From the IMG/VR virus record IMGVR_UViG_2617270938_000004: a stretch of DNA of 11,126 nucleotides; one strand, written 5' to 3'. Source of the stretch: a virus. Lineage: Duplodnaviria > Heunggongvirae > Uroviricota > Caudoviricetes. The notes beneath the pieces were generated by a model. That model was not told the DNA's origin. It saw nothing but the letters and a program-made list of their open reading frames with translations, and did no database searches. Numbering within the stretch: the stretch's first letter is position 1; every line of letters begins with the position of its first letter. The position numbers were made by a program, and so were the translations under genes. Shown one piece after another: positions 1 to 11,126 of this stretch.

Positions 1-1194
1 ATGATCACCGACACAAAGCTCAGGAAGGCGCTCGGCAAGAAAAGAGATGATATCGAGATTATTTCTGATTCGCACGGGCTCAACGCCAGAATCAGCCAGG
101 CCGGAAAAATATCATTTTTCTATCGGTATCGCTGGGCCGGTAAAGCGGTAAAACTCAATGTTGGTGATTATCCTGCAATGAGTATCACCCAGGCAAGAGA
201 GCGTCGCCAACAATTCAGAAACTGGTTAACTGAGGGACTGGATCCGCGAGAGCAGGTGAAGCTGGATAAGCAGACCCGACAGGAAGCGATGTCCGTTGCC
301 GAAGCGTTCAATTACTGGATTGAAAGGCACTGTATCGCTAACGGGCTAGTTAAAGTCGATTACTATCGCCAGGTGTTTGAGAAACATATCGCCGAACCGA
401 TGAAGAATGTCAAAGTCGATAACACAGCGAAAATGCACTGGATCAACGTCTTCGATTCTATAGAAAGCAGGGTGATGGCTCATTACATGCTTTCGCTGTG
501 CAAACGGGCGTTTAGGTTCTGCGTTAACAGAAGTGTGATCGCCTCAAACCCACTCGAGGGATTACTGCCATCTGATGTCGGGCAAAAGCCTAAAAAGAGA
601 ACTCGCAGGATGGACGATGACGATCTGCGCAAAATCTATCAGTGGTTGAAAAGCCATATGTCGATAGAGTCCGTTTTCCTGGTGAAATTTATTATGCTTA
701 CCGGATGCCGTACGGCTGAGATTCGACTTAGTGAGAGATCATGGTTTCGATTGGATGATAATGAGTGGGTCGTGCCTGCGGGCAGTTATAAAACTCGGGT
801 ACATATTAGAAGGGGACTCTCAGACGCCGCCGTTAACCTGGTCAGAAATCACCTCAAGAAAATAAACACCAATCACCTGGTGACTTCACAACGTAAAATT
901 GATGGCGGGATCAAAGATTCGCCCGTTCATTCACCTGTGGCATCCAATTACGCCCGTTCTATTTGGAATGGAACAGGTATGGCAGAGTGGTCGCTTCATG
1001 ATATGAGGCGGACGATAGCCACAAATCTCTCTGAGTTAGGTTGCCCGCCGCACGTAATTGAAAAGCTGCTCGGGCATCAGATGGTGGGGGTTATGGCGCA
1101 TTACAACCTTCATGACTATATCGATGATCAGAAACACTGGCTCCGCGTTTGGCAGAGCCATCTTGAAGAGATCATCGGAGAGCCCTTCAGTTAA
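1..1194 (+). CDS. int: Tyrosine recombinase / phage integrase, P4-type
   Basis: 397-aa ORF. N-terminus '[33 protein letters not shown]' resembles the arm-binding domain of P4-family integrases. Catalytic-domain signatures are present: 'TGCRTAEI' (Arg), 'HDMRRT' (His-x-x-Arg), 'LLGHQ...MAHYNLHDY' (His/Tyr). Stop TAA at 1192-1194. Upstream RBS and att site are outside the window. Confidence 0.9.
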
Positions 1195-1388
1195 TTTATC
1201 TTCTTTTTATCCTCCCACTCTTTGATTGACTCAGAGCGCCAGCGGTTAGGGTTGCCGGGCCAGTCAGGGGGTGGGAACGGGCATACGAAGCCCCGAGGCA
1301 TTGTGTCTGCACTTTGCCATGACCAAAGGGTTTTGCGTGAAATTTTGTAGCGACTGGTCAGGTCTGACGTTACCAAAATATCATCCAT
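1191..1388 (-). CDS. alpA: AlpA-family prophage regulator / excisionase-like HTH protein
   Basis: The ATG at 1388-1386 gives a 65-aa protein '[59 protein letters not shown]', which fits the AlpA pattern (HTH, then FP-P, then W-x-x-E-x-x-W). The ORF-track start at 1433 is a TTG with no RBS; the ATG at 1388 is preceded by a purine-rich 'AGAGAGAG'. The stop overlaps the int stop. Confidence 0.7.
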
Positions 1389-1429
1389 AGCTCTCTCTAG
1401 TTGCCCGTTCGGGCCATTCAAAATCTTTT

Positions 1430-1672
1430 TCAACCAACCTGCCCGGGCAGGGAGCGGAGACGGCGCATGCCGGTCATCGCTGTGGCCACGTAGCTCGCCT
1501 TTCGGTTCACCACCTCCACCCAGACTTTCACGCCTTCAACCTTCACCGTATAAGTCTCTTTCATCTTGCTTCGCCCATAGTCGCCATATGTTTGCAAGTG
1601 AGCTGCCAGCGCGATGTCGCATGCTTGGCGAGCTAAAGGTGATTGCTTACTTCCTCGATTGATCAGTCGCAT
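1430..1672 (-). CDS. Hypothetical small protein (80 aa) in the recombination operon
   Basis: ATG at 1672-1670 preceded by a strong Shine-Dalgarno 'AAGGAG' with a roughly 6-nt spacer (reverse complement of 1673-1684). It sits between the RecT-like and AlpA-like genes on the same strand. No family recognised by eye. Confidence 0.55.
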   Translation of the reverse strand: MRLINRGSKQSPLARQACDIALAAHLQTYGDYGRSKMKETYTVKVEGVKVWVEVVNRKASYVATAMTGMRRLRSLPGQVG

Positions 1673-1710
1673 ATAATCTCCTTGAGGGAGGGTTACCCCT
1701 CCCGGTCTCG

Positions 1711-2829
1711 TCAGGCCACGTATTCCGGTTTCATATCCGCCAGGGTGATGCTGAATTGATCGTGCAGTTCATCGCCTAAGTGACGCTTTGAAGATGCAAG
1801 CATGCGCTCGGCTTCAGCGAACCGTTCGGCTGCATGCGGCTCGTCGGGCTGGGGCAGGGATTTAATAGCCTCCTCAACCTTGTTGCGTGCATCCACTAGG
1901 TAATAACGCTTTACGGCTTTGTTTTTCAGCTCGGTGAATAGTGCGGATCCCAGCGTAGCTTTCGCCGTTTCAATGTCGGCACGCAGCGATTTGGCGCTAT
2001 CCACGTCCTGAGCAGATTCGATGCGTTCGCGGAAATCATCGGCAAGAGAGTCGACATTTACCGACGATTCCTGTGCGCTTTGCGTGGTTGTGACGGTGTC
2101 ACCTGAGATATCAGCCAGGCTAACGCGTTGCGGCGTTGGGTTGATCTCTTTTTCTGTGCGCTGTTCAATCTCATCAGGGGTGTACACACCAAGAACAACT
2201 GCAGGGCAATACAGGCGCGCCCAGTATTTGAGTGCCAGATAAGCGATCTGCTGTTTCGGGTTTGATACCCAAAGTGGAGAATTACGTGTGATTACGCTGG
2301 AGAGGAAAACAGGCTCTCCCCAGGTGATATCACTTTCACCGCGAATAACGGCACCTACCCGTACCGACAGTCCTTGTTCATCAGCACTTTCCCAACCGCG
2401 TACCATTTCTTTCTTGTCGTACGTCCCGCCACCTTTCGCAGGCTTTTTAACGGTTATCTCGCGGCTGCTGGCACATTTCGACCAGTCGCCCTCGTACTCA
2501 TAGTGAAAGCGGCCAACGATGGCGTTTGAGCTGGAGATCACCGCATTAACCAGTTGCGCTTCGTATCCCAGGACACCGTTAACCAGGTGCGTCTTTTGCG
2601 CCACGGCGTAAGGGTTCATACCCCACTGCATCGCCTGCATGATGATGGCCATGCAGTCTGCCGGATTGCCGCGGAGGTGCTCAGGCACCGTTACGGCTGC
2701 CTGTGCCATCAACCCGGCGACAGACTGAAGCTGGGTTAAAGCCTGCACGTTGAAAATGGCATTGCTGGCTGAGATCGTGTTTGGAGTCTGCTGTTCAGCG
2801 GTTACGATATTCGTGTTTTCCATCATCAT
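1711..2829 (-). CDS. RecT/Bet-family single-strand annealing protein
   Basis: 372 aa. Segments 'GNPADCMAIIMQAMQWGMNPYAVAQKTHLV' and 'LWVSNPKQQIAYLALKYWARLYCPAVVLGVYTPDEIE' parallel lambda Bet as I remember it ('...FIALLIVANQYGLNPWTKEIYAF...', '...PWQSHPKRMLRHKAMIQCARLAFGFAGIYDKDEAE'). RBS 'AAGGGGA' lies directly upstream of the ATG triplet at 2829-2821, and the upstream gene's stop is only 5 nt away. Confidence 0.8.
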   Translation of the reverse strand: MMMENTNIVTAEQQTPNTISASNAIFNVQALTQLQSVAGLMAQAAVTVPEHLRGNPADCMAIIMQAMQWGMNPYAVAQKTHLVNGVLGYEAQLVNAVISSSNAIVGRFHYEYEGDWSKCASSREITVKKPAKGGGTYDKKEMVRGWESADEQGLSVRVGAVIRGESDITWGEPVFLSSVITRNSPLWVSNPKQQIAYLALKYWARLYCPAVVLGVYTPDEIEQRTEKEINPTPQRVSLADISGDTVTTTQSAQESSVNVDSLADDFRERIESAQDVDSAKSLRADIETAKATLGSALFTELKNKAVKRYYLVDARNKVEEAIKSLPQPDEPHAAERFAEAERMLASSKRHLGDELHDQFSITLADMKPEYVA

Positions 2830-2834
2830 TCCCC

Positions 2835-3704
2835 TTATGCCTGAGTACGCAGCGCTTCAAGGCGGCGCAGGTCGAAGTCGTTCAGTTCGTCGGTGTAGTC
2901 AGCAGTGATTGGCGCTGGCCATTCACCTGTGTCGAATCCGGTTGCGATATTGCGCATCGCTTTGCGGTACTCGAGCATACCCAGCTCCAGTAGTTCAGCG
3001 GATGCCTCGATGATGGCGATCCAGTGGTAGTTCTCGTCTTTGTTGACGAAAATCCAGAAGAACTGATCCAGCGCTGCGGTTTCGCAGTACATAGCCGCGC
3101 TCAGGTGATAATCACGTTCAATAATTTCCCGGTGTAGCCTGGCGCGCAGGCTTTCCTGCTTAACATTCCACATGCTGATGGTTTTCAGGTCAGCACCGAT
3201 ACGCACGCCGTCTAGGTCGATCTCAAGGTCAGGGCGCACACGAACTTCCAGTCCCGTCTCCTCGTCAAAGCCAAAGTAGCTCACCTCAACGGCGCGGCTC
3301 GGGTGGGTTAGCAGCATGCCTGCGGTCGGGTGCGAGAGCAGTGCTGACTGAATTGCCTGCGCGGTGGCAAGTTGCTGGTGGGTAACCAGCACTTTCCCTT
3401 CCGGGTTGTTGCGCCACGCATCGAGCAGCTCGTCGGCGAACACTGCATCTGGTTTGACTGCCTTCACGGCCTGAATCAGATCGGCCTTCGTGCCAGAGAC
3501 TTTCAGCGGTTGCAGCTTCTGAGCTTCCTGCGCGACCAGGTCAGGATTGATAATCGCAAGTTGTTCGAGTAGTGCGTCGCGGCTGCCGCTGGTTTTAATC
3601 TGCGCTGGCAGGGTGGCGTTGTACTCTTTGATGCACGCCTTCATTGCTGTTGCTGTCTTCTTCTGATCTGCATCGATACGTTGGAATTCAGCTGGCAGCG
3701 CCAT
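2835..3704 (-). CDS. PD-(D/E)XK-superfamily exonuclease (RecE/YqaJ-like partner of the annealing protein)
   Basis: Motif 'VEVSYFGFDEETGLEVRVRPDLEIDLDGVRIGADLKTIS' fits the E...PD...(D/E)xK nuclease core. The gene is immediately upstream of, and co-oriented with, the RecT-like gene. Start placed at the ATG at 3704-3702 ('MALPAEFQ...'); the ORF track extends to a GTG at 3764, which would overlap the divergent GP46-like gene. Confidence 0.7.
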   Translation of the reverse strand: MALPAEFQRIDADQKKTATAMKACIKEYNATLPAQIKTSGSRDALLEQLAIINPDLVAQEAQKLQPLKVSGTKADLIQAVKAVKPDAVFADELLDAWRNNPEGKVLVTHQQLATAQAIQSALLSHPTAGMLLTHPSRAVEVSYFGFDEETGLEVRVRPDLEIDLDGVRIGADLKTISMWNVKQESLRARLHREIIERDYHLSAAMYCETAALDQFFWIFVNKDENYHWIAIIEASAELLELGMLEYRKAMRNIATGFDTGEWPAPITADYTDELNDFDLRRLEALRTQA

Positions 3705-3709
3705 ATAGT
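3681..3709 (+). promoter_or_regulatory. Candidate sigma70-like promoter (TTGGAA-N17-TATAGT) reading toward the baseplate genes
   Basis: 'ttggaa' at 3681-3686 and 'tatagt' at 3704-3709, separated by 17 nt, about 50 nt upstream of the ATG at 3759. Pattern match only. Confidence 0.2.
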
Positions 3710-3758
3710 TCTGCGCCGTTTCATCCAGGCTAACGGCGTACTGACATCTGAGAATGAT

Positions 3759-4121
3759 ATGCACACGGCCATAATTATCAGTTTGTTTACTGACGGACTG
3801 GCGCGCGCTGATGATGATTATGAAGGAACTGACCGCCGCGGCTGGTGGGGGGATCTGGACAACGACCGGAATATTGGCTCAAGGCTGTGGCTACTGCGGC
3901 GTGAAAAACTGACGCGCGAAGTGGCGATGAGAGCTGAAGATTATGCCGAAGAGGCTCTGGCCTGGATGAAGTCGGATGGTATTGCAGCAGCGATAGAGGC
4001 TCAGTCAGAGATTGTTTTCCCGAATAGGCTGAACCTCATCATCCGGTATTTGCCGCCGGCGGGGGACTGGCAGGAGTTCAAATTCTTCTGGCTATGGGAG
4101 CAACTGAATAATGCCATTTAA
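3759..4121 (+). CDS. Phage GP46-family baseplate protein (Mu gp46-like)
   Basis: 'AIIISLFTDGLARADDDYEGTDRRGWWGDLDNDRNIGSRLWLLRREKLT' matches the GP46 family signature (SLFTD...RRGWWGD...GSRLWLL). First ATG in frame is at 3759; the ORF-track start at 3681 is a TTG. The N-terminus may be shortened relative to family members. Confidence 0.7.
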   Translation: MHTAIIISLFTDGLARADDDYEGTDRRGWWGDLDNDRNIGSRLWLLRREKLTREVAMRAEDYAEEALAWMKSDGIAAAIEAQSEIVFPNRLNLIIRYLPPAGDWQEFKFFWLWEQLNNAI

Positions 4122-5259
4122 GCGGAAAACACTGAGCGAGCTCCGGCAGGAGAATCGCCAGTTTATGCAGGCAGAGCTTGAAAGTGTTGGCGCGCTGTTA
4201 CGGTTTGGCAACCTTAAGGTGCTCGCTGATATGGATGCGGGCATGGCCCATCTGCACTACGCCTACCTGGATTATATTGCCCGTCAGAGCACGCCTTTCA
4301 CCTCTACCGATGAGTGGCTTGCCGGATGGATGGCGCTAAAGCAGATTTACCGAAAAGCCGCAACGGCAGCACGCTCTCCGGCGGCGACCGTTACCGGAAC
4401 GCCGGGGAAAACACTGTCAAAAGGGGCGGTGTTAAACCGTGATGATGGTTACCAGTACACAACCGATGATGCCATAACGATAAACACTGCTGGCAGTGCG
4501 TCGGTTGCTGTAACAGCGGTTTTGCCGGATATCACAGACGATGTGACAGGAGGAGGCACTTCCGGAAATGCCGATGCTGGCACCATTCTTACACTGGATG
4601 CTAATGCCCCCGGCATAGACAGCTCGGTTACGCTGATTGAGCCCGCCACCGGCGGCGCCAACATTGAAAGTGAAGAGGATTTCCGATTACGTGGTCTGCT
4701 GGCGTATCAGAATCCCCCGCAGGGCGGGAGTGACACTGATTATAAAAGCTGGGCTTTATCCGTGTCGGGGATCACCAGGGCATGGATACGGCGCCGGGGG
4801 ATGGGGCCGGGTACCGTGGTGATTTACATCATGTGCGACGGCGATGATAAAACCAATCATGGATTCCCTGCAGGAACTGACGGTGTCTCTCAACTGGAAG
4901 AGTGGGGGGCTGTAAAAGCCACCGGGGATCAGGGGAGAGTTGCCGATTATATGTATCCGCTTGCGCCGGTTACCTCCCTTAACTATGTCTGCTCTCCCAT
5001 CGAACGCGTTATCGATTTTGAAATAAGCGGGATATCTGATGCCGACAGCGCAACGACTGCGGCCATTGCTGATGCGATTGACGGGGTATTGTTTGAATCT
5101 GCTAACCCGCTCGGCACAGGGAAAATTTACCTTTCAGATCTCAACCGTGCGATAGGGGATGTTGCCGGTACTTCAGGTTATATCCTTGTGTCGCCTTCTG
5201 CGAATATTGAGCCGGGAGTTGGGGAGCTGGCTGTTCGTGGTGAGGTGAACTACACATGA
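4111..5259 (+). CDS. Baseplate J-like protein (Mu gp47 / e14 JayE-like)
   Basis: 382-aa ORF whose start overlaps the GP46-like gene by 11 nt. Order GP46-J-DUF2313 is as in Mu-like and e14-like tail modules. Judged Baseplate_J-like by overall similarity; HMM confirmation needed. Confidence 0.8.
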   Translation: MPFKRKTLSELRQENRQFMQAELESVGALLRFGNLKVLADMDAGMAHLHYAYLDYIARQSTPFTSTDEWLAGWMALKQIYRKAATAARSPAATVTGTPGKTLSKGAVLNRDDGYQYTTDDAITINTAGSASVAVTAVLPDITDDVTGGGTSGNADAGTILTLDANAPGIDSSVTLIEPATGGANIESEEDFRLRGLLAYQNPPQGGSDTDYKSWALSVSGITRAWIRRRGMGPGTVVIYIMCDGDDKTNHGFPAGTDGVSQLEEWGAVKATGDQGRVADYMYPLAPVTSLNYVCSPIERVIDFEISGISDADSATTAAIADAIDGVLFESANPLGTGKIYLSDLNRAIGDVAGTSGYILVSPSANIEPGVGELAVRGEVNYT

Positions 5260-5930
5260 GCCTTTTCTCAACAGACGATTATCAGAAGGCACTGCAGGCG
5301 CTTATCCCCACCGGCCGAGCGTGGACACGGGATCCAAAAGCTGTTCAGGCCGCTGTACTGCGGGCCATTGCGGCCAGTTTCCAGCGAAGTGATAACGACG
5401 CACTTGCATTGCTGCGCGGTGCCTTTCCAAAAACTGCGACGATTATGCTCACCGAGTGGGAAAAAACACTCGGCTTACCTGATGATTGCTCAATTGGCGA
5501 AGTGGATACGATTGCGAAGCGTCAGTCTGCCATTGTATCGAAACTCATCAGCACCGGCGGGCAGTCAAAGAGCTATTTCATCAGTATTGCCGCAGCAATG
5601 GGTTATACGATTTCGATTAAGGAATACCGGCAGGCGCGTGCTGGCTTATCGGTATGTGGTGACGGGCTAAATGGGGATGACTGGCCATTTGTCTGGCTGG
5701 TAGAGGCAGAAGACACAACGATAACTTATGCCCGTGCAGGTCTGAGTTATTGCGGCGATCCATTACGCTCCTGGGGTAATCGCCAGCTTGAGTGCCGGAT
5801 AAATGCCCTTGCCCCCTCATACACCCTGGTGAAATTTGGCTATATCTATTTCGGTTTTAACGATGAGGGGGTTTACGAAGTCACGCCTGAGTTTGCCAGA
5901 ATATTTGATATCGCTTCCGGTTACGTTTAA
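5256..5930 (+). CDS. Phage tail protein, YmfQ/DUF2313 family (Mu gp48-like)
   Basis: 224 aa with an ATGA start/stop overlap with the upstream J-like gene (ATG 5256-5258, TGA 5257-5259). N-terminus 'MSLFSTDDYQKALQALIPTGRAWTRDP' resembles the YmfQ family. It lies directly upstream of a tail fibre gene. Confidence 0.8.
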   Translation: MSLFSTDDYQKALQALIPTGRAWTRDPKAVQAAVLRAIAASFQRSDNDALALLRGAFPKTATIMLTEWEKTLGLPDDCSIGEVDTIAKRQSAIVSKLISTGGQSKSYFISIAAAMGYTISIKEYRQARAGLSVCGDGLNGDDWPFVWLVEAEDTTITYARAGLSYCGDPLRSWGNRQLECRINALAPSYTLVKFGYIYFGFNDEGVYEVTPEFARIFDIASGYV

Positions 5931-5956
5931 TTCAGACATTTAAAAAGAAGGTTTAT

Positions 5957-6742
5957 ATGAGAAAAGTTGGCAGTACAACTGACACCGCTGATGCTAATGG
6001 TGAATACACTAATGGTAATGTCGCTAATGGTATTTCACCGACAATAATTAATGCTGAGATGATGAATACCTTTCAGCGTGAGCTGGTAAACGTTGTTGAG
6101 GGCGCGGGGCTTGAGCTTGATCCTGATGATGATTCACAGGTTCTTAAAGCGATTGGTGGCGGTCGCCTGCTTAATATTGTCACCTTTACTAAGTCAGGGA
6201 CTTACACTCCAACTAAAGGGACGAAAAGAGTGCGGGTGAAAGTTTGGGGAGCGGGGGGAGGTGGCCAGAATGCTCCAGTTAGTGTGGGCGCATCTGGAGG
6301 TTGTGCTGGTGGATTTTCGGAAGGGTTATTTAATATTTCTGATAACGAAACTATATCTGTGACGATAGGTACTGGTGGCAGTGCTGTTGCTGCTGGTGTC
6401 TCGTCTAAAGGCGGGAATGGTGGTGATACAAGGTTCGGGAGTTTAATCTCAGCTACTGGAGGGAGTGGTGGCGGGGCTACAGTTCCTGCTGGAGGTATCG
6501 GAAGTGGCGGGAACATTTTAAATATTACTGGCGGAATATCTCAAGGTGGTCTGTATTATGGTTCTGATGCTTTTATTGGCGGGGCTGGGGGATCTGCATT
6601 TTCATCAACGGGTGGCAATGGCCACTTCGGTAGTTCTGGCGATGATGGCGGTTTCCCCGGCTCAGGTGGTGCCGGGGGGAATGGTAACTATTCATCAGGA
6701 AAAGGAGCGAATGGTTTAGTTTACCTTGAAGAGTTTTCCTGA
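5957..6742 (+). CDS. Tail fibre protein with conserved N-terminal fibre domain and glycine-rich C-terminal region
   Basis: 261 aa. RBS 'GAAGG' 5 nt before the ATG. N-terminus 'GISPTIINAEMMNTFQRELVNVVEGAGLELDPDDDSQVLKAIGG' matches the conserved tail-fibre N-terminal motif seen in P2/Mu/e14-type fibres. C-terminal 170 aa is Gly-rich ('VKVWGAGGGGQN...GGSGGGATVPAGGIGSGGN...'). Codon usage is AT-rich relative to the upstream baseplate genes. Confidence 0.75.
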   Translation: MRKVGSTTDTADANGEYTNGNVANGISPTIINAEMMNTFQRELVNVVEGAGLELDPDDDSQVLKAIGGGRLLNIVTFTKSGTYTPTKGTKRVRVKVWGAGGGGQNAPVSVGASGGCAGGFSEGLFNISDNETISVTIGTGGSAVAAGVSSKGGNGGDTRFGSLISATGGSGGGATVPAGGIGSGGNILNITGGISQGGLYYGSDAFIGGAGGSAFSSTGGNGHFGSSGDDGGFPGSGGAGGNGNYSSGKGANGLVYLEEFS

Positions 6743-7812
6743 TTATTTTTGCTTTGAGCGTCCGCCCTTATTTTTGCTCTAATTTTAATTAGTGGCTTTT
6801 CTATTAATATTACACAAACGATCCCAAGTGCAATTGATATTGGGTAGCCTAATAAAAAGATGGATAAGCCACGATTTTCACCACCAATAGCAAGCCATGC
6901 TAGAAATCCACCAAAATATTGACAAAGAAAAATTGGATAGGCCAGGTCACCAAACCACTTGAGTATTTTCTCAAGATGTATGTTTGTCTTTATTTTTAAT
7001 AATACCAGGGTTGTAAACAATGCTATTACATTATTGGTGTAGTAAAGTATTATGTTGTACTGACCTAATGCATTAATTGTATATAAATGCCAATTGGTAA
7101 TAAAAATCCCGATGCAAATAAATGTTATTAAAAAAGCTTTGTGTGGAGAAAGATACATAGCTTTGAACTTTCTATGGGCAAAATAACCCAGAGAACCCAT
7201 GCTAAAAGGAAGTGTTGCAGCAAGGAATGGGAAATACGCCATATCAAAAGAATGGTGTACTACATATACGTAAGCATGATAAAGCAGTGAAAGCAGAATC
7301 GACGTAATGGCTGTAAATTTATTTCGGGCTATGAAAAGCCACAATAAAAAATAACATGTTATCTCAACACCCACTGACCATGATGATGTGACTATTCTGA
7401 ATCTATTACCATCAATAGCAAAGTGATAAATGGATGAAAAGGCACCGAATGGATTTGCTACAGCATTATCAGAAAGGAAAGCCCAGGGGAAGATTAAGAG
7501 GTTTCCTAATAAATCTCCAGGTAAGAAATTGCCTGTCCAGTTTGAGTGGAATTCCTTTGCGGATGGAATTAATTTTATAATAAGAAAGCCCATGACGAGA
7601 AAAAATATATATGCCGGGAATAACCTCAGCATTCTATTTTTCCAAAACATAGAGAAGTTGAACTTGTATGTTTCATGCAAAATGTATGTTATTAAAAAAC
7701 CACTAATAACATAGAAGCAATTCACTGCAAAGTTGCCAAGTGCAGGTATGCGAGCCGTTAAGTGAAAAGCAATGACGCACGATGCCAAAAAAAACCTTAT
7801 TAGGCCAAGCAT
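6721..7812 (-). CDS. Acyltransferase family 3 integral membrane protein (O-antigen / polysaccharide O-acetyltransferase-like, Oac/OafA-type)
   Basis: 363 aa and highly hydrophobic. Family hallmarks: 'FHLTARIPALGNFAVNCFYVISGFLITY' and 'FWKNRMLRLFPAYIFF', comparable to the 'G-x-x-GVD-x-FFV-x-SGFLIT' and 'R-x-x-R-I-x-PxY' motifs. The 3' end overlaps the convergent tail fibre gene by 22 bp. Confidence 0.85.
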   Translation of the reverse strand: MLGLIRFFLASCVIAFHLTARIPALGNFAVNCFYVISGFLITYILHETYKFNFSMFWKNRMLRLFPAYIFFLVMGFLIIKLIPSAKEFHSNWTGNFLPGDLLGNLLIFPWAFLSDNAVANPFGAFSSIYHFAIDGNRFRIVTSSWSVGVEITCYFLLWLFIARNKFTAITSILLSLLYHAYVYVVHHSFDMAYFPFLAATLPFSMGSLGYFAHRKFKAMYLSPHKAFLITFICIGIFITNWHLYTINALGQYNIILYYTNNVIALFTTLVLLKIKTNIHLEKILKWFGDLAYPIFLCQYFGGFLAWLAIGGENRGLSIFLLGYPISIALGIVCVILIEKPLIKIRAKIRADAQSKNNQENSSR

Positions 7813-8075
7813 TATTTTATCTCCGCGCCAATATCGCGCATTTTATTTATTACATTGTTAAGTTGCTCATCAGACAGAACAAGCTGAGCTGCAATATAAA
7901 ACAGTATGTGTCTTGACATTACCCTGGGGCTCTCTCCGCCAGTGTATTTCCGCCATTGGCTATCGCTGGCTACACCTGCGAGCCCTGCCATTTGGTTTCC
8001 GGAGTAATTTAGTGCGGATTTCAGTCTGGCTAAATCTTCCTGCGTTGGAGGGGTGTATTTATTTATTAAAATCAT
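7812..8075 (-). CDS. XRE-like helix-turn-helix DNA-binding protein, co-transcribed upstream of the acyltransferase
   Basis: 87 aa from the ATG at 8075-8073. 'TQEDLARLKSALNYSGNQMAGLAGVASDSQWRKYTGGE' fits a Cro/C1-type HTH. Its stop overlaps the acyltransferase start in a TAATG arrangement (7810-7814, minus strand). An 87-codon ORF in AT-rich DNA is unlikely by chance. The ORF-track start at 8099 is a GTG without RBS. Confidence 0.55.
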   Translation of the reverse strand: MILINKYTPPTQEDLARLKSALNYSGNQMAGLAGVASDSQWRKYTGGESPRVMSRHILFYIAAQLVLSDEQLNNVINKMRDIGAEIK

Positions 8076-8107
8076 TCTCTTATTTAACCGTTTAAACACG
8101 TAAGGCG

Positions 8108-8136
8108 ATGTTAGCCCTGAAGGGGCGGGGCGTCAA
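8108..8136 (-). promoter_or_regulatory. Candidate sigma70-like promoter (TTGACG-N17-TAACAT on the minus strand) for the HTH-acyltransferase operon
   Basis: Reverse complement of 8131-8136 is 'TTGACG' and of 8108-8113 is 'TAACAT', with a 17-nt spacer, about 33 nt upstream of the ATG at 8075. Pattern match only. Confidence 0.2.
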
Positions 8137-8176
8137 TCTTAATTGCTTCATTGAAAAGATGAAGACAGGAACAGGT

Positions 8177-10360
8177 ATGGACAAAAGATATAATACCGGC
8201 AATCCAAGACCTTCAAATAGCATGAAGGATCTGAATGATAACGCCCTGGCGTACGATGATTTCCTGAACAGCGAAAGAGATACTTTTATAGATCGTTTTG
8301 GTAACGCCCAGGATACGATAATTGGGGCTACTAAAAAAATGGCAGCTGCTACCGACGCTGTTATTGATGAAGCCCGCCAAAACCTGATCCCTCTGAGCAA
8401 GCAATACATGACGCTTGCTGATGCACAGGCAGATATTGCTAATATCCCCGAGGGGAGCACTACTTATTATCGCAGCCCGGATGACAGCGCCCTCGCGATC
8501 GAGGTCATGAACGTTGGCGGAACGTTGCAGCCAACCGGTCGCAGGATGATTTCTGCTGGATATGTTGACGCGCTGAGAGATTTGGTTGCCACTGAACTGG
8601 CGAAAATTATGGCTTTCGGTGCTGCTCAGACTACCGATGCATACCCAGATATTGCTGAGCTCATTCTTGATAGTGTAGGGCATGCCGTTTATCGCCGTTA
8701 TACCGATGGCACGAGCCAGTTTCCGGCATTGATGATTGGTTCAGGGATTGAGCTTGTGCAAATTGCAGGTGGAGGATTTGTCTGCCAGATGCGCGCCACT
8801 GGTGAAGAAATATTTAACATTTCTGCCCTTGGCAATCTGACACATGGCAGCCTGACCACGTGGTTTGCTGATGATGACAGTGTCAGTGACTATTCTGAAA
8901 TACATATGGACGGACAGGGGAGAATTTTTCGGCGAGTTCGCACAGATGGTACCGTGGAGCAGCTGGGCGATGACACACCTGATGATGACGCCTCTGAATT
9001 CCCAATGGTTGCTTCAGTTGATGGAAATATCATTGCGGTAGATGGCAGCGATGTAACTCAGATCACGAACGACTCCGGAGTTTCAAATATTGCGCCAGTG
9101 GCATATGCGGAATTTTTGCGTTATTTGTCGAATGTCAGCGGCAACTACATCACTTATCGATCCACTTATGACGGGAATTACCGGGCGCGAGAGTCATTGC
9201 GCTTTCTTATTCACCTGATTATAACTGGTCAGTCTCTTGCTGCAGGCGGTTCAACGCAAGCACAAAGCCCTGTAACGACAACAGCGCAGGCAGATTACGG
9301 CATACTCTCGTTTGAGACCGGCCCGAAAGTCGATTTTAAGTATGACACGCTGAATGAATCGCTCCTTGAGGCTGTCATCCCATGCCGGGAGAATGCTGGG
9401 ACGCGGCCTGGACAGGAGTCGCCATCAAGCGGTATGGCGTTTAAAATTCATGATCTCACCGGGCATACGGTTCTGGTTTCCGATGCGTGCTCATCCGGTA
9501 CTGCAATCGCAGACATTTCATCCGGTTCAGCGACTTTTACTGGTGCAACGAAAATGATTCAGTCAGCTGTAGCCATGGCTGAAAAGTTGGGTATGCAGTA
9601 TGTTCCCGTAATGGTGCTTATCCACGGCAACCAGAATGCAGCAGCAGGCACATCTATATCCAGTTATCGCGCCGCAATGGAGACTCTCCGTGCTCAGTAT
9701 GAGTCTGTCATTAACGCGGCAACAGGAAAAAGCCAGTCGCTTCACATGTTTGTAGGCCAGTTATCTAATACCATTCCATACGGCGGAACTGCCGGTTCGA
9801 CCAAAACTAATAACATCGGTATCGCACAATATCAGGAAGCCCGTGATAACGCATTAATCCATCTTGCCAGCGCACAGTATGCCCGCCCGTATTCAGACGG
9901 TGAGCATCTGACCAGCGCAGGGTATCGGACAGAAGGCGAAGTTATTGGCGCGGTGGTTGGTGGGTGGCTGAATGACAATACAAAATCCGCGCTTGTGCCG
10001 ATAGAGTCTGGTGTTGTGCAGTCAGGAACCACAATCACTATACCAGTGGCGGGTTGTGTTGGTGATCTCGTGATTGACACCTCGAGGGTTACCGATCCAG
10101 GCAACTACGGCTTTGTCCTGACCGGGGCCACAATTGCTTCGGTAGCCGTTAGCGGCAGCGGATCAGCAGCAAAAATAGTTATCACCAAGACCGATTCTAC
10201 CACTGCGACGGCGATATCTTATGCAAGCCAGGGGATTGCCGGACAAAACCCCGGCCCTGTAACCGGTTCGCGCGGGTGTATCAGAGATTCCCAAACAGGG
10301 ACGTCACTATCCGGCCTGCCTCTCTATAACGACCTTTGCGTTTTCTCCATCCAGCTTTAA
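8177..10360 (+). CDS. Putative tail fibre / tailspike-like protein with SGNH-hydrolase (sialate-O-acetylesterase-like) domain
   Basis: Start placed at the ATG at 8177 (AGGA 6 nt upstream); the ORF track begins at 8108. Catalytic-type motifs: 'LIITGQSLAAGGS' (GQS at 9227-9235, the SGNH block I serine), 'VLIHGNQNAAAG' (block III-like), 'DGEHLTSAGYRTEGE' (DxxH block V; Asp 9896-9898, His 9905-9907). No N-terminal signal peptide. C-terminal 130 aa is Thr/Ser/Gly-rich and looks beta-rich. It sits in a tail-fibre locus. Confidence 0.7.
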   Translation: MDKRYNTGNPRPSNSMKDLNDNALAYDDFLNSERDTFIDRFGNAQDTIIGATKKMAAATDAVIDEARQNLIPLSKQYMTLADAQADIANIPEGSTTYYRSPDDSALAIEVMNVGGTLQPTGRRMISAGYVDALRDLVATELAKIMAFGAAQTTDAYPDIAELILDSVGHAVYRRYTDGTSQFPALMIGSGIELVQIAGGGFVCQMRATGEEIFNISALGNLTHGSLTTWFADDDSVSDYSEIHMDGQGRIFRRVRTDGTVEQLGDDTPDDDASEFPMVASVDGNIIAVDGSDVTQITNDSGVSNIAPVAYAEFLRYLSNVSGNYITYRSTYDGNYRARESLRFLIHLIITGQSLAAGGSTQAQSPVTTTAQADYGILSFETGPKVDFKYDTLNESLLEAVIPCRENAGTRPGQESPSSGMAFKIHDLTGHTVLVSDACSSGTAIADISSGSATFTGATKMIQSAVAMAEKLGMQYVPVMVLIHGNQNAAAGTSISSYRAAMETLRAQYESVINAATGKSQSLHMFVGQLSNTIPYGGTAGSTKTNNIGIAQYQEARDNALIHLASAQYARPYSDGEHLTSAGYRTEGEVIGAVVGGWLNDNTKSALVPIESGVVQSGTTITIPVAGCVGDLVIDTSRVTDPGNYGFVLTGATIASVAVSGSGSAAKIVITKTDSTTATAISYASQGIAGQNPGPVTGSRGCIRDSQTGTSLSGLPLYNDLCVFSIQL

Positions 10361-10373
10361 AGGACTGTAAATC

Positions 10374-11126
10374 ATGACTACCCGCTTTTATATTGATAAC
10401 GGTGTGACAGCCACGCGTTACCTTGACACTTACCCTTATCCAAACGACATCACCCAACTTCCGGCTTTAATACCGGGGATTATCCTGCAGGCTGATTTTG
10501 ACGTAAAAGACACTGCATCATTAACCAGAAACCGGGTTGGAGCTGCTATGTCCGTTGTTGGCTCTCCTGTTCTTGGTGATTACGGCGTCAGCCTCACTGA
10601 GGCTAACCACCTGGATACAAACATCGACATAGCAGCATATAACGGCAGCGATCTGACAATGGTGACAATAGCTGTCCATCCAGGGGTAATTGGTGCTGTT
10701 GTGGGCCGGGTGCAGATGAACGCGCCACAGCGTACTCGTGGTACACAAACTACGGCTACAGCGTGGAGAGCTAAATGGTTGACTGCAGCAGGTGCAGCAC
10801 AACAGGCCGACCTTATCCCGTCTACTGCCGCAATTGATGGCGAAATGGCAGTCAGTCGGTTTGTGCGAGACAACGGTAGCGGATCAATGCTGACTAAGCT
10901 TGATCTGCCACGCACATCACAGTCAGCAACCCGCACCGCAGCGACGACTCCTTATGCTGTACCTTCGTCAAAAATTCTGCTGGGCGGTTCTGTCGAGGGA
11001 GCCACGACTGCCACTATCTTCATGCGGGCATGCCTGATTGTATCTAGGGCAATAACGGATGTTGAAATGGCAACTATTTACACCTATTACAAAAATTATT
11101 ATCAGCTGAAAGGCAAAAACATTTAA
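10374..11126 (+). CDS. LamG-like (concanavalin A-like lectin fold) domain protein, putative carbohydrate-binding tail accessory protein
   Basis: 250 aa. RBS 'AGGA' 9 nt upstream, immediately after the esterase stop. C-terminal 'ILLGGSVEGATTATIFMRACLIVSRAITDVEMATIYTYYKNY' resembles the LamG/Laminin_G_3 terminal motif (iG....F.G.IDEvRiYnRALs..Ei..lY). Assignment by motif only. Confidence 0.5.
   Translation: MTTRFYIDNGVTATRYLDTYPYPNDITQLPALIPGIILQADFDVKDTASLTRNRVGAAMSVVGSPVLGDYGVSLTEANHLDTNIDIAAYNGSDLTMVTIAVHPGVIGAVVGRVQMNAPQRTRGTQTTATAWRAKWLTAAGAAQQADLIPSTAAIDGEMAVSRFVRDNGSGSMLTKLDLPRTSQSATRTAATTPYAVPSSKILLGGSVEGATTATIFMRACLIVSRAITDVEMATIYTYYKNYYQLKGKNI

Follow-up and report, generated by a model that had tools for sequence, protein, structure and literature searches.

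The gene considered here lies in an 11,126-nucleotide stretch of DNA (hereafter the window) from a virus of the class Caudoviricetes (IMG/VR record IMGVR_UViG_2617270938_000004), and its 261-residue product is a complete 'simplified' tail fibre of the type represented by gp24 of cyanophage Pam3, a known family whose structure has already been solved. The region is Escherichia coli prophage DNA, present in 32 of 5426 complete genomes, and the window is an internal deletion derivative of a prophage that is intact in strain 20KM2222, where the same fibre gene sits within an intact-looking myovirus prophage whose head is lambda-like, whose tail and baseplate are Mu-like and whose early region, with RecE/RecT, is lambdoid. 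It is very probable that the protein serves as the single-protein fibre of this myovirus, carried on a Mu-type baseplate, and that its glycine-rich tip binds the receptor. The gene for the Tfa chaperone that normally follows the fibre gene in e14, P2 and Mu is missing, and this absence is real, lineage-wide and recurrent in the family and not a local defect; the fibre is an ordinary member of a widespread short tail-fibre family, and its lack of Tfa is normal for the lineage and no sign of damage.

The protein is identical to RefSeq WP_001310746.1, which occurs in E. coli HS and in 20KM2222, the gene in the window differing from theirs by a single synonymous change at position 6589, and its RefSeq annotation is in some places 'glycine-rich domain-containing protein' and in others 'phage tail protein' or 'hypothetical protein'. 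Over its full length the protein is 25% glycine, a share that rises to 32% in residues 91-261 (55 of 171; binomial P = 3e-21 with 7.4% as background), and the sole cysteine, C116, lies within this glycine-rich domain. The original prediction, made from the letters of the DNA, had described a short tail fibre whose C-terminal part begins with VKVWGAGGGG and consists largely of GG-x-GG-type repeats, probably as a beta-structured or flexible receptor-binding region. The motif is indeed found at residues 94-103 and the richness in glycine holds, with 19 runs of GG or longer. The spacing of the glycine motifs is irregular, Tandem Repeats Finder reports no tandem repeats in the glycine-rich part, and a tandem-repeat origin for the motifs is rejected on that ground. 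The same program finds a 15-nt unit, present 2.7 times at positions 5993-6032, in the N-terminal part, where it codes for the ANGEYTNGNVANG segment of the conserved N-terminus. An antisense ORF (open reading frame) of 104 residues, rich in proline (6202-6516, minus strand), is the shadow of the GGN glycine codons and no gene.

Family, fold and gene order place the fibre beside Pam3 gp24. The protein matches Pfam PF21722 (Gly_rich_2) with 38.8 bits against a cut-off of 24.3, its residues 80-257 lying on positions 3-223 of the 226 in the profile (a literature search on PF21722 returned no paper), and it matches tail and tail-fibre families among the PHROGs, with its C-terminus reaching the profile ends and residues 1-66 resembling the N-termini of many tail-fibre PHROGs. 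In a phmmer search of the Protein Data Bank (PDB) it matches the Pam3 fibre chains 7YPX_A and 7YFW_a from residue 41 to 261, reaching the chain's C-terminal region, and the N-terminal 90 residues alone gave nothing meaningful in a PDB sequence search. Structure prediction of the C-terminal domain had been proposed as a check, and the AlphaFold2 (AF2) model, built with 28 homologues, bears out a beta-structured domain: the predicted local distance difference test score (pLDDT) is 83, the means of 10-residue blocks run from 77 to 97 over residues 71-261, and helices at 33-49 and 61-67 are followed by beta structure from residue 71 in a fold that resembles tumour necrosis factor (TNF) and is rich in glycine. 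The top Foldseek match of this model in the PDB is again the Pam3 fibre 7YPX_A (E 2.7e-10, probability 1.0, 23% identity over the alignment), which makes Pam3 gp24 the best PDB match by sequence and by fold, and the next matches are tail-tip chains of mycobacteriophage Bxb1, including 9D93_Q, and the TNF-like/glycine-rich (TG) domains of ALK/LTK. Among viral models (BFVD) there are 278 matches at E<=1e-3, including proteins annotated as tail fibres in Xanthomonas phage FoX6 and Escherichia phage Goslar, as well as Gp38 of Synechococcus phage syn9, while the N-terminal part has a weak Foldseek match to the Mu baseplate chain 9KI1_j. The family alignment shows invariant glycines in the receptor-binding domain, and the N-terminus is near-invariant in combination with unrelated tips, at 80-90% identity in short fibres that bear gp53-like (PF21882), PF07484 or PF21939 tips; a tblastn search of the fibre against the phage collection gave N-terminal matches only, with the low-complexity filter masking the tip.

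The likeness to Pam3 gp24 (PDB 7YPX and 7YFW; PMC9608196, PMC9942802) extends to length (261 residues here against 280 in Pam3), to a common plan, in which a helical N-domain is joined to a TNF-like sandwich and to a lattice of about 12 glycine-rich motifs, and to position, since both genes follow gp46/47/48-type baseplate genes in the order of Pam3 gp21-24 (PMC9942802), as the Mu fibre likewise follows gp46-gp47-gp48. In the window the order upstream is GP46, Baseplate_J and Mu_Gp48, the last immediately preceding the fibre and encoding the homologue of Pam3 gp23, the wedge protein on which gp24 hangs in a six-component Mu-like baseplate (PMC9942802). As for differences, a Tfa-like gp25 lies directly downstream in Pam3 and nothing of the kind is found at the window locus, and the Pam3 fibres are anchored by disulfides of Cys28 whereas the window fibre has no N-terminal cysteine.

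From this likeness a docking role is assigned to residues 1-67 and a receptor-binding role to residues 68-261. The fibre would, by homology, form a trimer in which residues 1-67 attach to the gp47/gp48 wedge, the product of the preceding genes, and make a short helical shaft, while in residues 68-261 the strands of a TNF-like beta-sandwich would run into the glycine-rich motif lattice, with variable loops at the far end that may bind the host receptor; in Pam3 gp24, too, the variable distal tip of the glycine-rich domain is the proposed receptor binder (PMC9608196). Lipopolysaccharide (LPS), or its O-antigen, is by analogy the most likely receptor here because the homologues from Klebsiella phages bind LPS: in TFP_Y, a 297-residue homologue from jedunavirus SCNJ1-Y, LPS binding triggers DNA ejection, and host-range mutations map to the glycine-rich domain (PMC12671077). 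For SCNJ1-Y a two-receptor scheme has been described that starts with an enzyme-bearing protein and continues with the small fibre (PMC12671077), and the window fibre probably works in the same way with the large tail protein encoded downstream, which would act first, after which the small fibre would bind LPS and trigger ejection.

Other systems resemble the locus in part. The Klebsiella jedunavirus fibres (TFP_Y; KpV52 gp45) are gp24-like, about 297 residues long, belong to enterobacterial myoviruses, have no adjacent Tfa and are paired with a separate enzyme-bearing receptor-binding protein, and a C-terminal ...GLVIIEEYS motif is common to both; they differ in the N-terminal docking segment, in belonging to lytic phages and in what comes next, lysis genes in place of a convergent accessory gene. 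Pantoea phage AH07 (gp23 and gp24) has a 282-residue fibre (34% identity), a Mu-type baseplate upstream and a convergent acyltransferase nearby, but a 140-residue Tfa of the Caudo_TAP family stands between fibre and acyltransferase. The fibre-Tfa(-invertase) modules of e14, Mu and P2 share the Mu-type baseplate genes upstream, including the YmfQ/gp48 homologue, and the N-terminus of the window fibre weakly resembles a Mu baseplate chain, whereas the window fibre is much shorter, has another tip fold and lacks both Tfa and an invertible segment. Finally, T-even gp38 adhesins such as S16 gp38 and the TG domains of ALK/LTK also bind receptors or ligands with a domain of glycine-rich motifs, but gp38, which requires gp57A, caps a long fibre as a protein of its own, and ALK/LTK are eukaryotic receptors; likeness to S16 gp38 has been reported for Pam3 gp24 (PMC9608196), and S16 gp38 is not among the top 50 Foldseek matches of the window fibre.

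The lack of a Tfa gene after the fibre, with a convergent acyltransferase as the next gene, was correctly read from the start, and the proposed search for tfa homologues elsewhere in the element makes the absence lineage-wide. A profile hidden Markov model (HMM) was built from 28 ORFs of about 135-146 residues that lie downstream of related fibres, drawn from 80 viral loci with related tips, and two of its members were verified as Pfam Caudo_TAP. At E<=10 with filters off it has no match in the window, in HS, in the whole 20KM2222 prophage (loci L002 and L010) or in L001 and L003-L011, sister loci from E. coli, Klebsiella and Serratia; it has none in Serratia phage BZS1 and none at E<=1 in L094-L097, and in the 9.6-kb locus around the fibre of KpV52, a lytic Klebsiella jedunavirus in which convergent spanin and endolysin genes come after a 297-residue fibre of the same type, its best match is not significant (E 0.75). 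A tblastn search with the AH07 Tfa as query agrees, with no match in the window or the intact prophage. BZS1 and KpV52 are viable phages without Tfa after the fibre. Prophages of E. coli, Klebsiella and Serratia share the Tfa-less layout and keep their ORFs intact, even at L006 and L096, where the fibre is not followed by a convergent gene. Since the Tfa-less state is found in the whole lineage and around the fibre of a viable lytic phage, it is a lineage trait and no anomaly of the locus, so that the departure from the e14/P2/Mu norm stands as an absence but not as a peculiarity of this one gene. The fibre would then fold without a dedicated chaperone, as a lineage with no Tfa-type gene implies.

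Among about 46 usable fibre clusters, an adjacent full-length Tfa is found in about 23, a short or split one in 8 and none in about 15. Miniature Tfa ORFs limited to about 55-60 N-terminal residues, the fibre-binding half, occur at L024 (4594-4770), L031 (4609-4845), L039 (4660-4848) and L055 (4651-4839), directly preceding a convergent acyltransferase-sized gene in L024, L031 and L055, and in L080 and L088 the Tfa is split over two frames. Candidates for another chaperone near the window fibre were discarded: the 95-residue minus-strand ORF resembles a regulator of the XRE/helix-turn-helix (HTH) kind, and the 250-residue protein folds as a ConA/LamG lectin and not as a Tfa, and has no match to the Tfa HMM. 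ORFs of 66 and 99 residues past the window end have no family matches, and nothing was returned when the 250-, 750- and 95-residue proteins served as sequence queries against the PDB.

The comparison with glycine-rich fibre tips of related prophages, also proposed at the outset, shows that tips are exchanged on a constant base. Against sister locus L003 the window is 98.6% identical over 3731-6264, unrelated over 6265-7824, 96% identical over 7825-8541 and unrelated beyond, and the unrelated block spans the fibre tip and the convergent gene. In the sister-prophage fibres P0003, P0005 and P0007 the N-terminus is 100% identical and the tips are different. The neighbour of the tip changes as well, being an acyltransferase in the window and P0009, a DUF1796 protein in P0003, an uncharacterised 317-residue protein in P0007 and SASA plus an acyltransferase in Serratia (P0006), whereas in P0005 and Klebsiella P0012 a large plus-strand gene of tail-protein size follows the fibre directly, with no convergent gene. 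In this small sample, the sequences suggest that the tip and the convergent surface-modifying gene are transferred together as one cassette. The stronger idea, that the tip from codon ~103 and the convergent gene are swapped as a matched pair, a receptor-binding tip with an enzyme that alters the same receptor and so excludes phages with the same tip, is a tentative one that I consider possible but doubtful. As a separate observation, the C-terminal part of the large tail protein together with the gene after it forms another exchangeable block, with a boundary at ~8541 against L003, and E. coli HS diverges from the window at ~8551.

Two of the alternative explanations concern the gene itself and the DNA around it. 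The ORF is very short for a fibre of the e14/Mu/P2 type, and longer relatives exist (PHROG 863, with a profile length of 690, and fibres of 541-1423 residues with the same tip at IMG/VR loci L054, L057 and L091), yet it is extremely improbable that it is a truncated or frameshifted piece of a longer fibre gene, the finding that the original prediction had named as its refutation. Its N-terminus aligns with fibre N-termini from residue 1, its C-terminus, ...GLVYLEEFS, is in register with that of Pam3 gp24 and with those of 27 homologues, and the aligned family members all terminate in ...G.VI.EY[SA]; close and distant homologues are 255-294 residues long, a scan of 1.84 billion cluster representatives gave 2984 matches at E<=1e-3 of which most end-to-end ones are 250-300 residues, and the frameshifted variant that does exist (P0008), like the fused proteins P0002 and P0025, differs in appearance from the window fibre. 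On the lengths and end-to-end alignments a truncated gene or pseudogene is rejected. It is just as hard to credit that the fibre is part of an invertible host-range switch of the e14/Mu type whose other half lies outside the window. Such a reading can draw on a small serine recombinase of 182 residues (L002 20540-21088), about 5 kb downstream of the fibre in the intact prophage and weakly similar to the Mpi invertase family, but no long inverted repeats surround any segment between fibre and recombinase. Neither the window nor L002 14000-21300 has meaningful inverted repeats, matches to a gix/hix-like core are at chance level only, and the opposite strand holds no alternative fibre C-terminus and no Tfa, whereas the same method picked up true inverted duplicate pieces of Tfa in L046, L085 and L092. 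An invertible segment is accordingly rejected, and the window was rightly said to hold no invertase gene and no inverted fibre segment. The serine recombinase itself sits at the prophage end adjoining yciI, about 0.7 kb past the window's right end in the intact prophage.

The other two alternatives concern what the protein can do. Several points weigh against a working single-protein fibre. The AF2 model is a monomer with low confidence in its N-terminal 30 residues; the lack of a cysteine equivalent to Pam3 Cys28 means that the attachment chemistry differs; the Tfa HMM covers Caudo_TAP-type chaperones only, and a different type of chaperone, a host factor or the Tfa of another prophage may help the fibre; Pam3 gp24 is mostly insoluble without gp25, encoded directly 3' (PMC9608196); AH07 and about half of the related viral loci keep an adjacent Tfa, so that chaperone independence is no family-wide trait; and the window copy is a remnant without sheath, tube and hub genes, although the fibre ORF itself is untouched. 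The dependence of Pam3 gp24 on gp25, the remnant state of the window prophage, the order of fibre, Tfa and convergent acyltransferase in AH07 and the miniature Tfa ORFs before a convergent acyltransferase in L024, L031 and L055, which could be a series of stepwise loss, would all fit a fibre that requires a chaperone its lineage has lost, for example through displacement by the acyltransferase insertion, the gene then being a relic unable to form working fibres. I regard this as unlikely: the Tfa-less layout is conserved with intact ORFs across three host genera even where no convergent gene follows the fibre, which also weakens acyltransferase insertion as a general cause, the 20KM2222 prophage appears complete, the viable BZS1 and KpV52 do without, TFP_Y, expressed alone from pET22b, was active and blocked LPS-triggered DNA ejection (PMC12671077), and the fibre tip is actively exchanged and retained. 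An improbable reading, too, is that the small protein is mainly an adaptor that anchors the 727-residue enzyme-bearing tail protein to the baseplate and no independent receptor binder. Every related locus pairs a short fibre with a large tail protein that has a conserved N-terminal anchor, and the Pam3 wedges have two fibre sites (PMC9942802), but the hypervariable tip is swapped in the manner of a receptor-binding domain, and homologues bind LPS directly. A single-protein fibre with a receptor-binding tip remains the preferred reading.

The remnant arose from the prophage of 20KM2222 type by loss of one internal block (Table 1). Window positions 1-3735 correspond to L010 25437-21703 (99.97%), a segment that begins at the integrase and ends inside recE, and positions 3731-4200 to L002 12475-12944 (100%), the sequence from 3731 on beginning 59 nt into gp46. 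Because this deletion remnant has no sheath, tube or hub genes the window copy cannot build a tail, and its exact arrangement, over at least 80% of the window, is found in none of the complete E. coli genomes in the collection. Elsewhere, P0002 (280 residues; loci L014 and L016; a cluster of 63 sequences) has foreign N-terminal sequence joined at about residue 45, and P0025 (442 residues) has a DNA-circularisation N-domain joined to the fibre at about residue 167, chimeras that point to more deletion remnants of the same prophage family in other strains.

Table 1. Positions of the fibre gene, its parts and its neighbours in the window.
Feature	Position	Strand	Basis or remark
Deletion joint, 5-bp microhomology, recE interior to gp46	3731..3735	.	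BLAST against intact prophage; ~31.5 kb gone
gp46-family gene, 5'-truncated (sheath-initiator homologue)	3731..4121	+	Pfam GP46; BLAST against intact prophage
Baseplate J / Mu gp47-type wedge gene	4111..5259	+	Pfam PF04865, E 4.9e-53
Mu gp48 / YmfQ-type wedge gene	5256..5930	+	Pfam PF10076, E 5.5e-31
Shine-Dalgarno-like AAGAAGG	5943..5949	+	Read directly from sequence; 7 nt 5' of fibre ATG
Tail-fibre gene, complete	5957..6742	+	ATG start, ORF of 261 residues
Putative N-terminal baseplate-docking segment with helices 33-49 and 61-67 (residues 1-67)	5957..6157	+	AF2; PHROG N-termini; shaft/trimerisation part in Pam3
Putative receptor-binding domain (residues 68-261), TNF-like beta-sandwich with interleaved glycine-rich lattice	6158..6739	+	AF2, Foldseek, alignment
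Recombination breakpoint at codon ~103, just past WGAGGGG; left end of the proposed tip and neighbour cassette	6264..6265	.	Window against L003
Convergent AT3-family acyltransferase (Acyl_transf_3; O-antigen acetylase-like, accessory 'moron')	6721..7812	-	Pfam PF01757; PHROG 3333 O-acetyltransferase; 35% G+C
XRE/HTH-like protein, 95 residues, same orientation as acyltransferase	7812..8099	-	PHROG 20491; weak HTH_31 and RstR matches
Second, large tail protein, 727 residues from annotated start; conserved N-terminal anchor, exchangeable C-terminal part	8177..10360	+	PHROG 4201 tail fibre, E 1e-88
Protein of 250 residues, concanavalin-A/LamG-type lectin fold	10374..11126	+	AF2 pLDDT 91; ends exactly at window edge

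Downstream, the 3' end of the acyltransferase gene overlaps that of the fibre by 22 nt, and no terminator lies between the two genes. The gene for the 95-residue protein corresponds in position to a BZS1 gene annotated as an XRE family regulator, and in Serratia L008 an 87-residue gene stands in its place, with window positions 7825-8066 aligning at 70% DNA identity. The low-G+C acyltransferase and the XRE-like gene form an accessory unit, antisense between two late tail genes, a layout that recurs in phage BZS1 and in a Serratia prophage. In the large tail protein that follows, the N-terminal 60-170 residues are conserved in L001, L003, L006, L008, L011, L096 and L097 and the remainder differs; its HS allele carries the annotation of a sialate O-acetylesterase, and GDSL lipases are faintly matched by a sister allele. 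Taken with the acyltransferase next to it, this suggests that a single element may put acyl groups on surface sugars and also take them off. The model of the 250-residue protein at the window's end matches the Hc region (N-subdomain) of tetanus and botulinum toxins and the lectin domain of trans-sialidase in Foldseek (E ~3e-7); its homologues are all about 250 residues long, one of them from Klebsiella phage vB_KpnM_VIK251, and the gene is absent from sister loci with other C-terminal cassettes.

Although the fibre matters little on its own and the cassette idea is only a mildly novel lead, an E. coli prophage protein known as 'hypothetical' or 'glycine-rich domain-containing' can now be placed in a structurally solved class of receptor-binding proteins. 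If the matched cassette is true then, taken with the lineage-wide lack of Tfa, it would mean that TNF-like, glycine-rich fibres can fold without a dedicated chaperone. Single-protein fibres of about 260 residues, with no chaperone gene and a swap point sharply set at codon ~103, make convenient scaffolds for host-range engineering. Furthermore, the apparent co-transfer of the tip with a surface-modifying gene offers a testable idea that links the adsorption specificity of temperate phages to superinfection exclusion.

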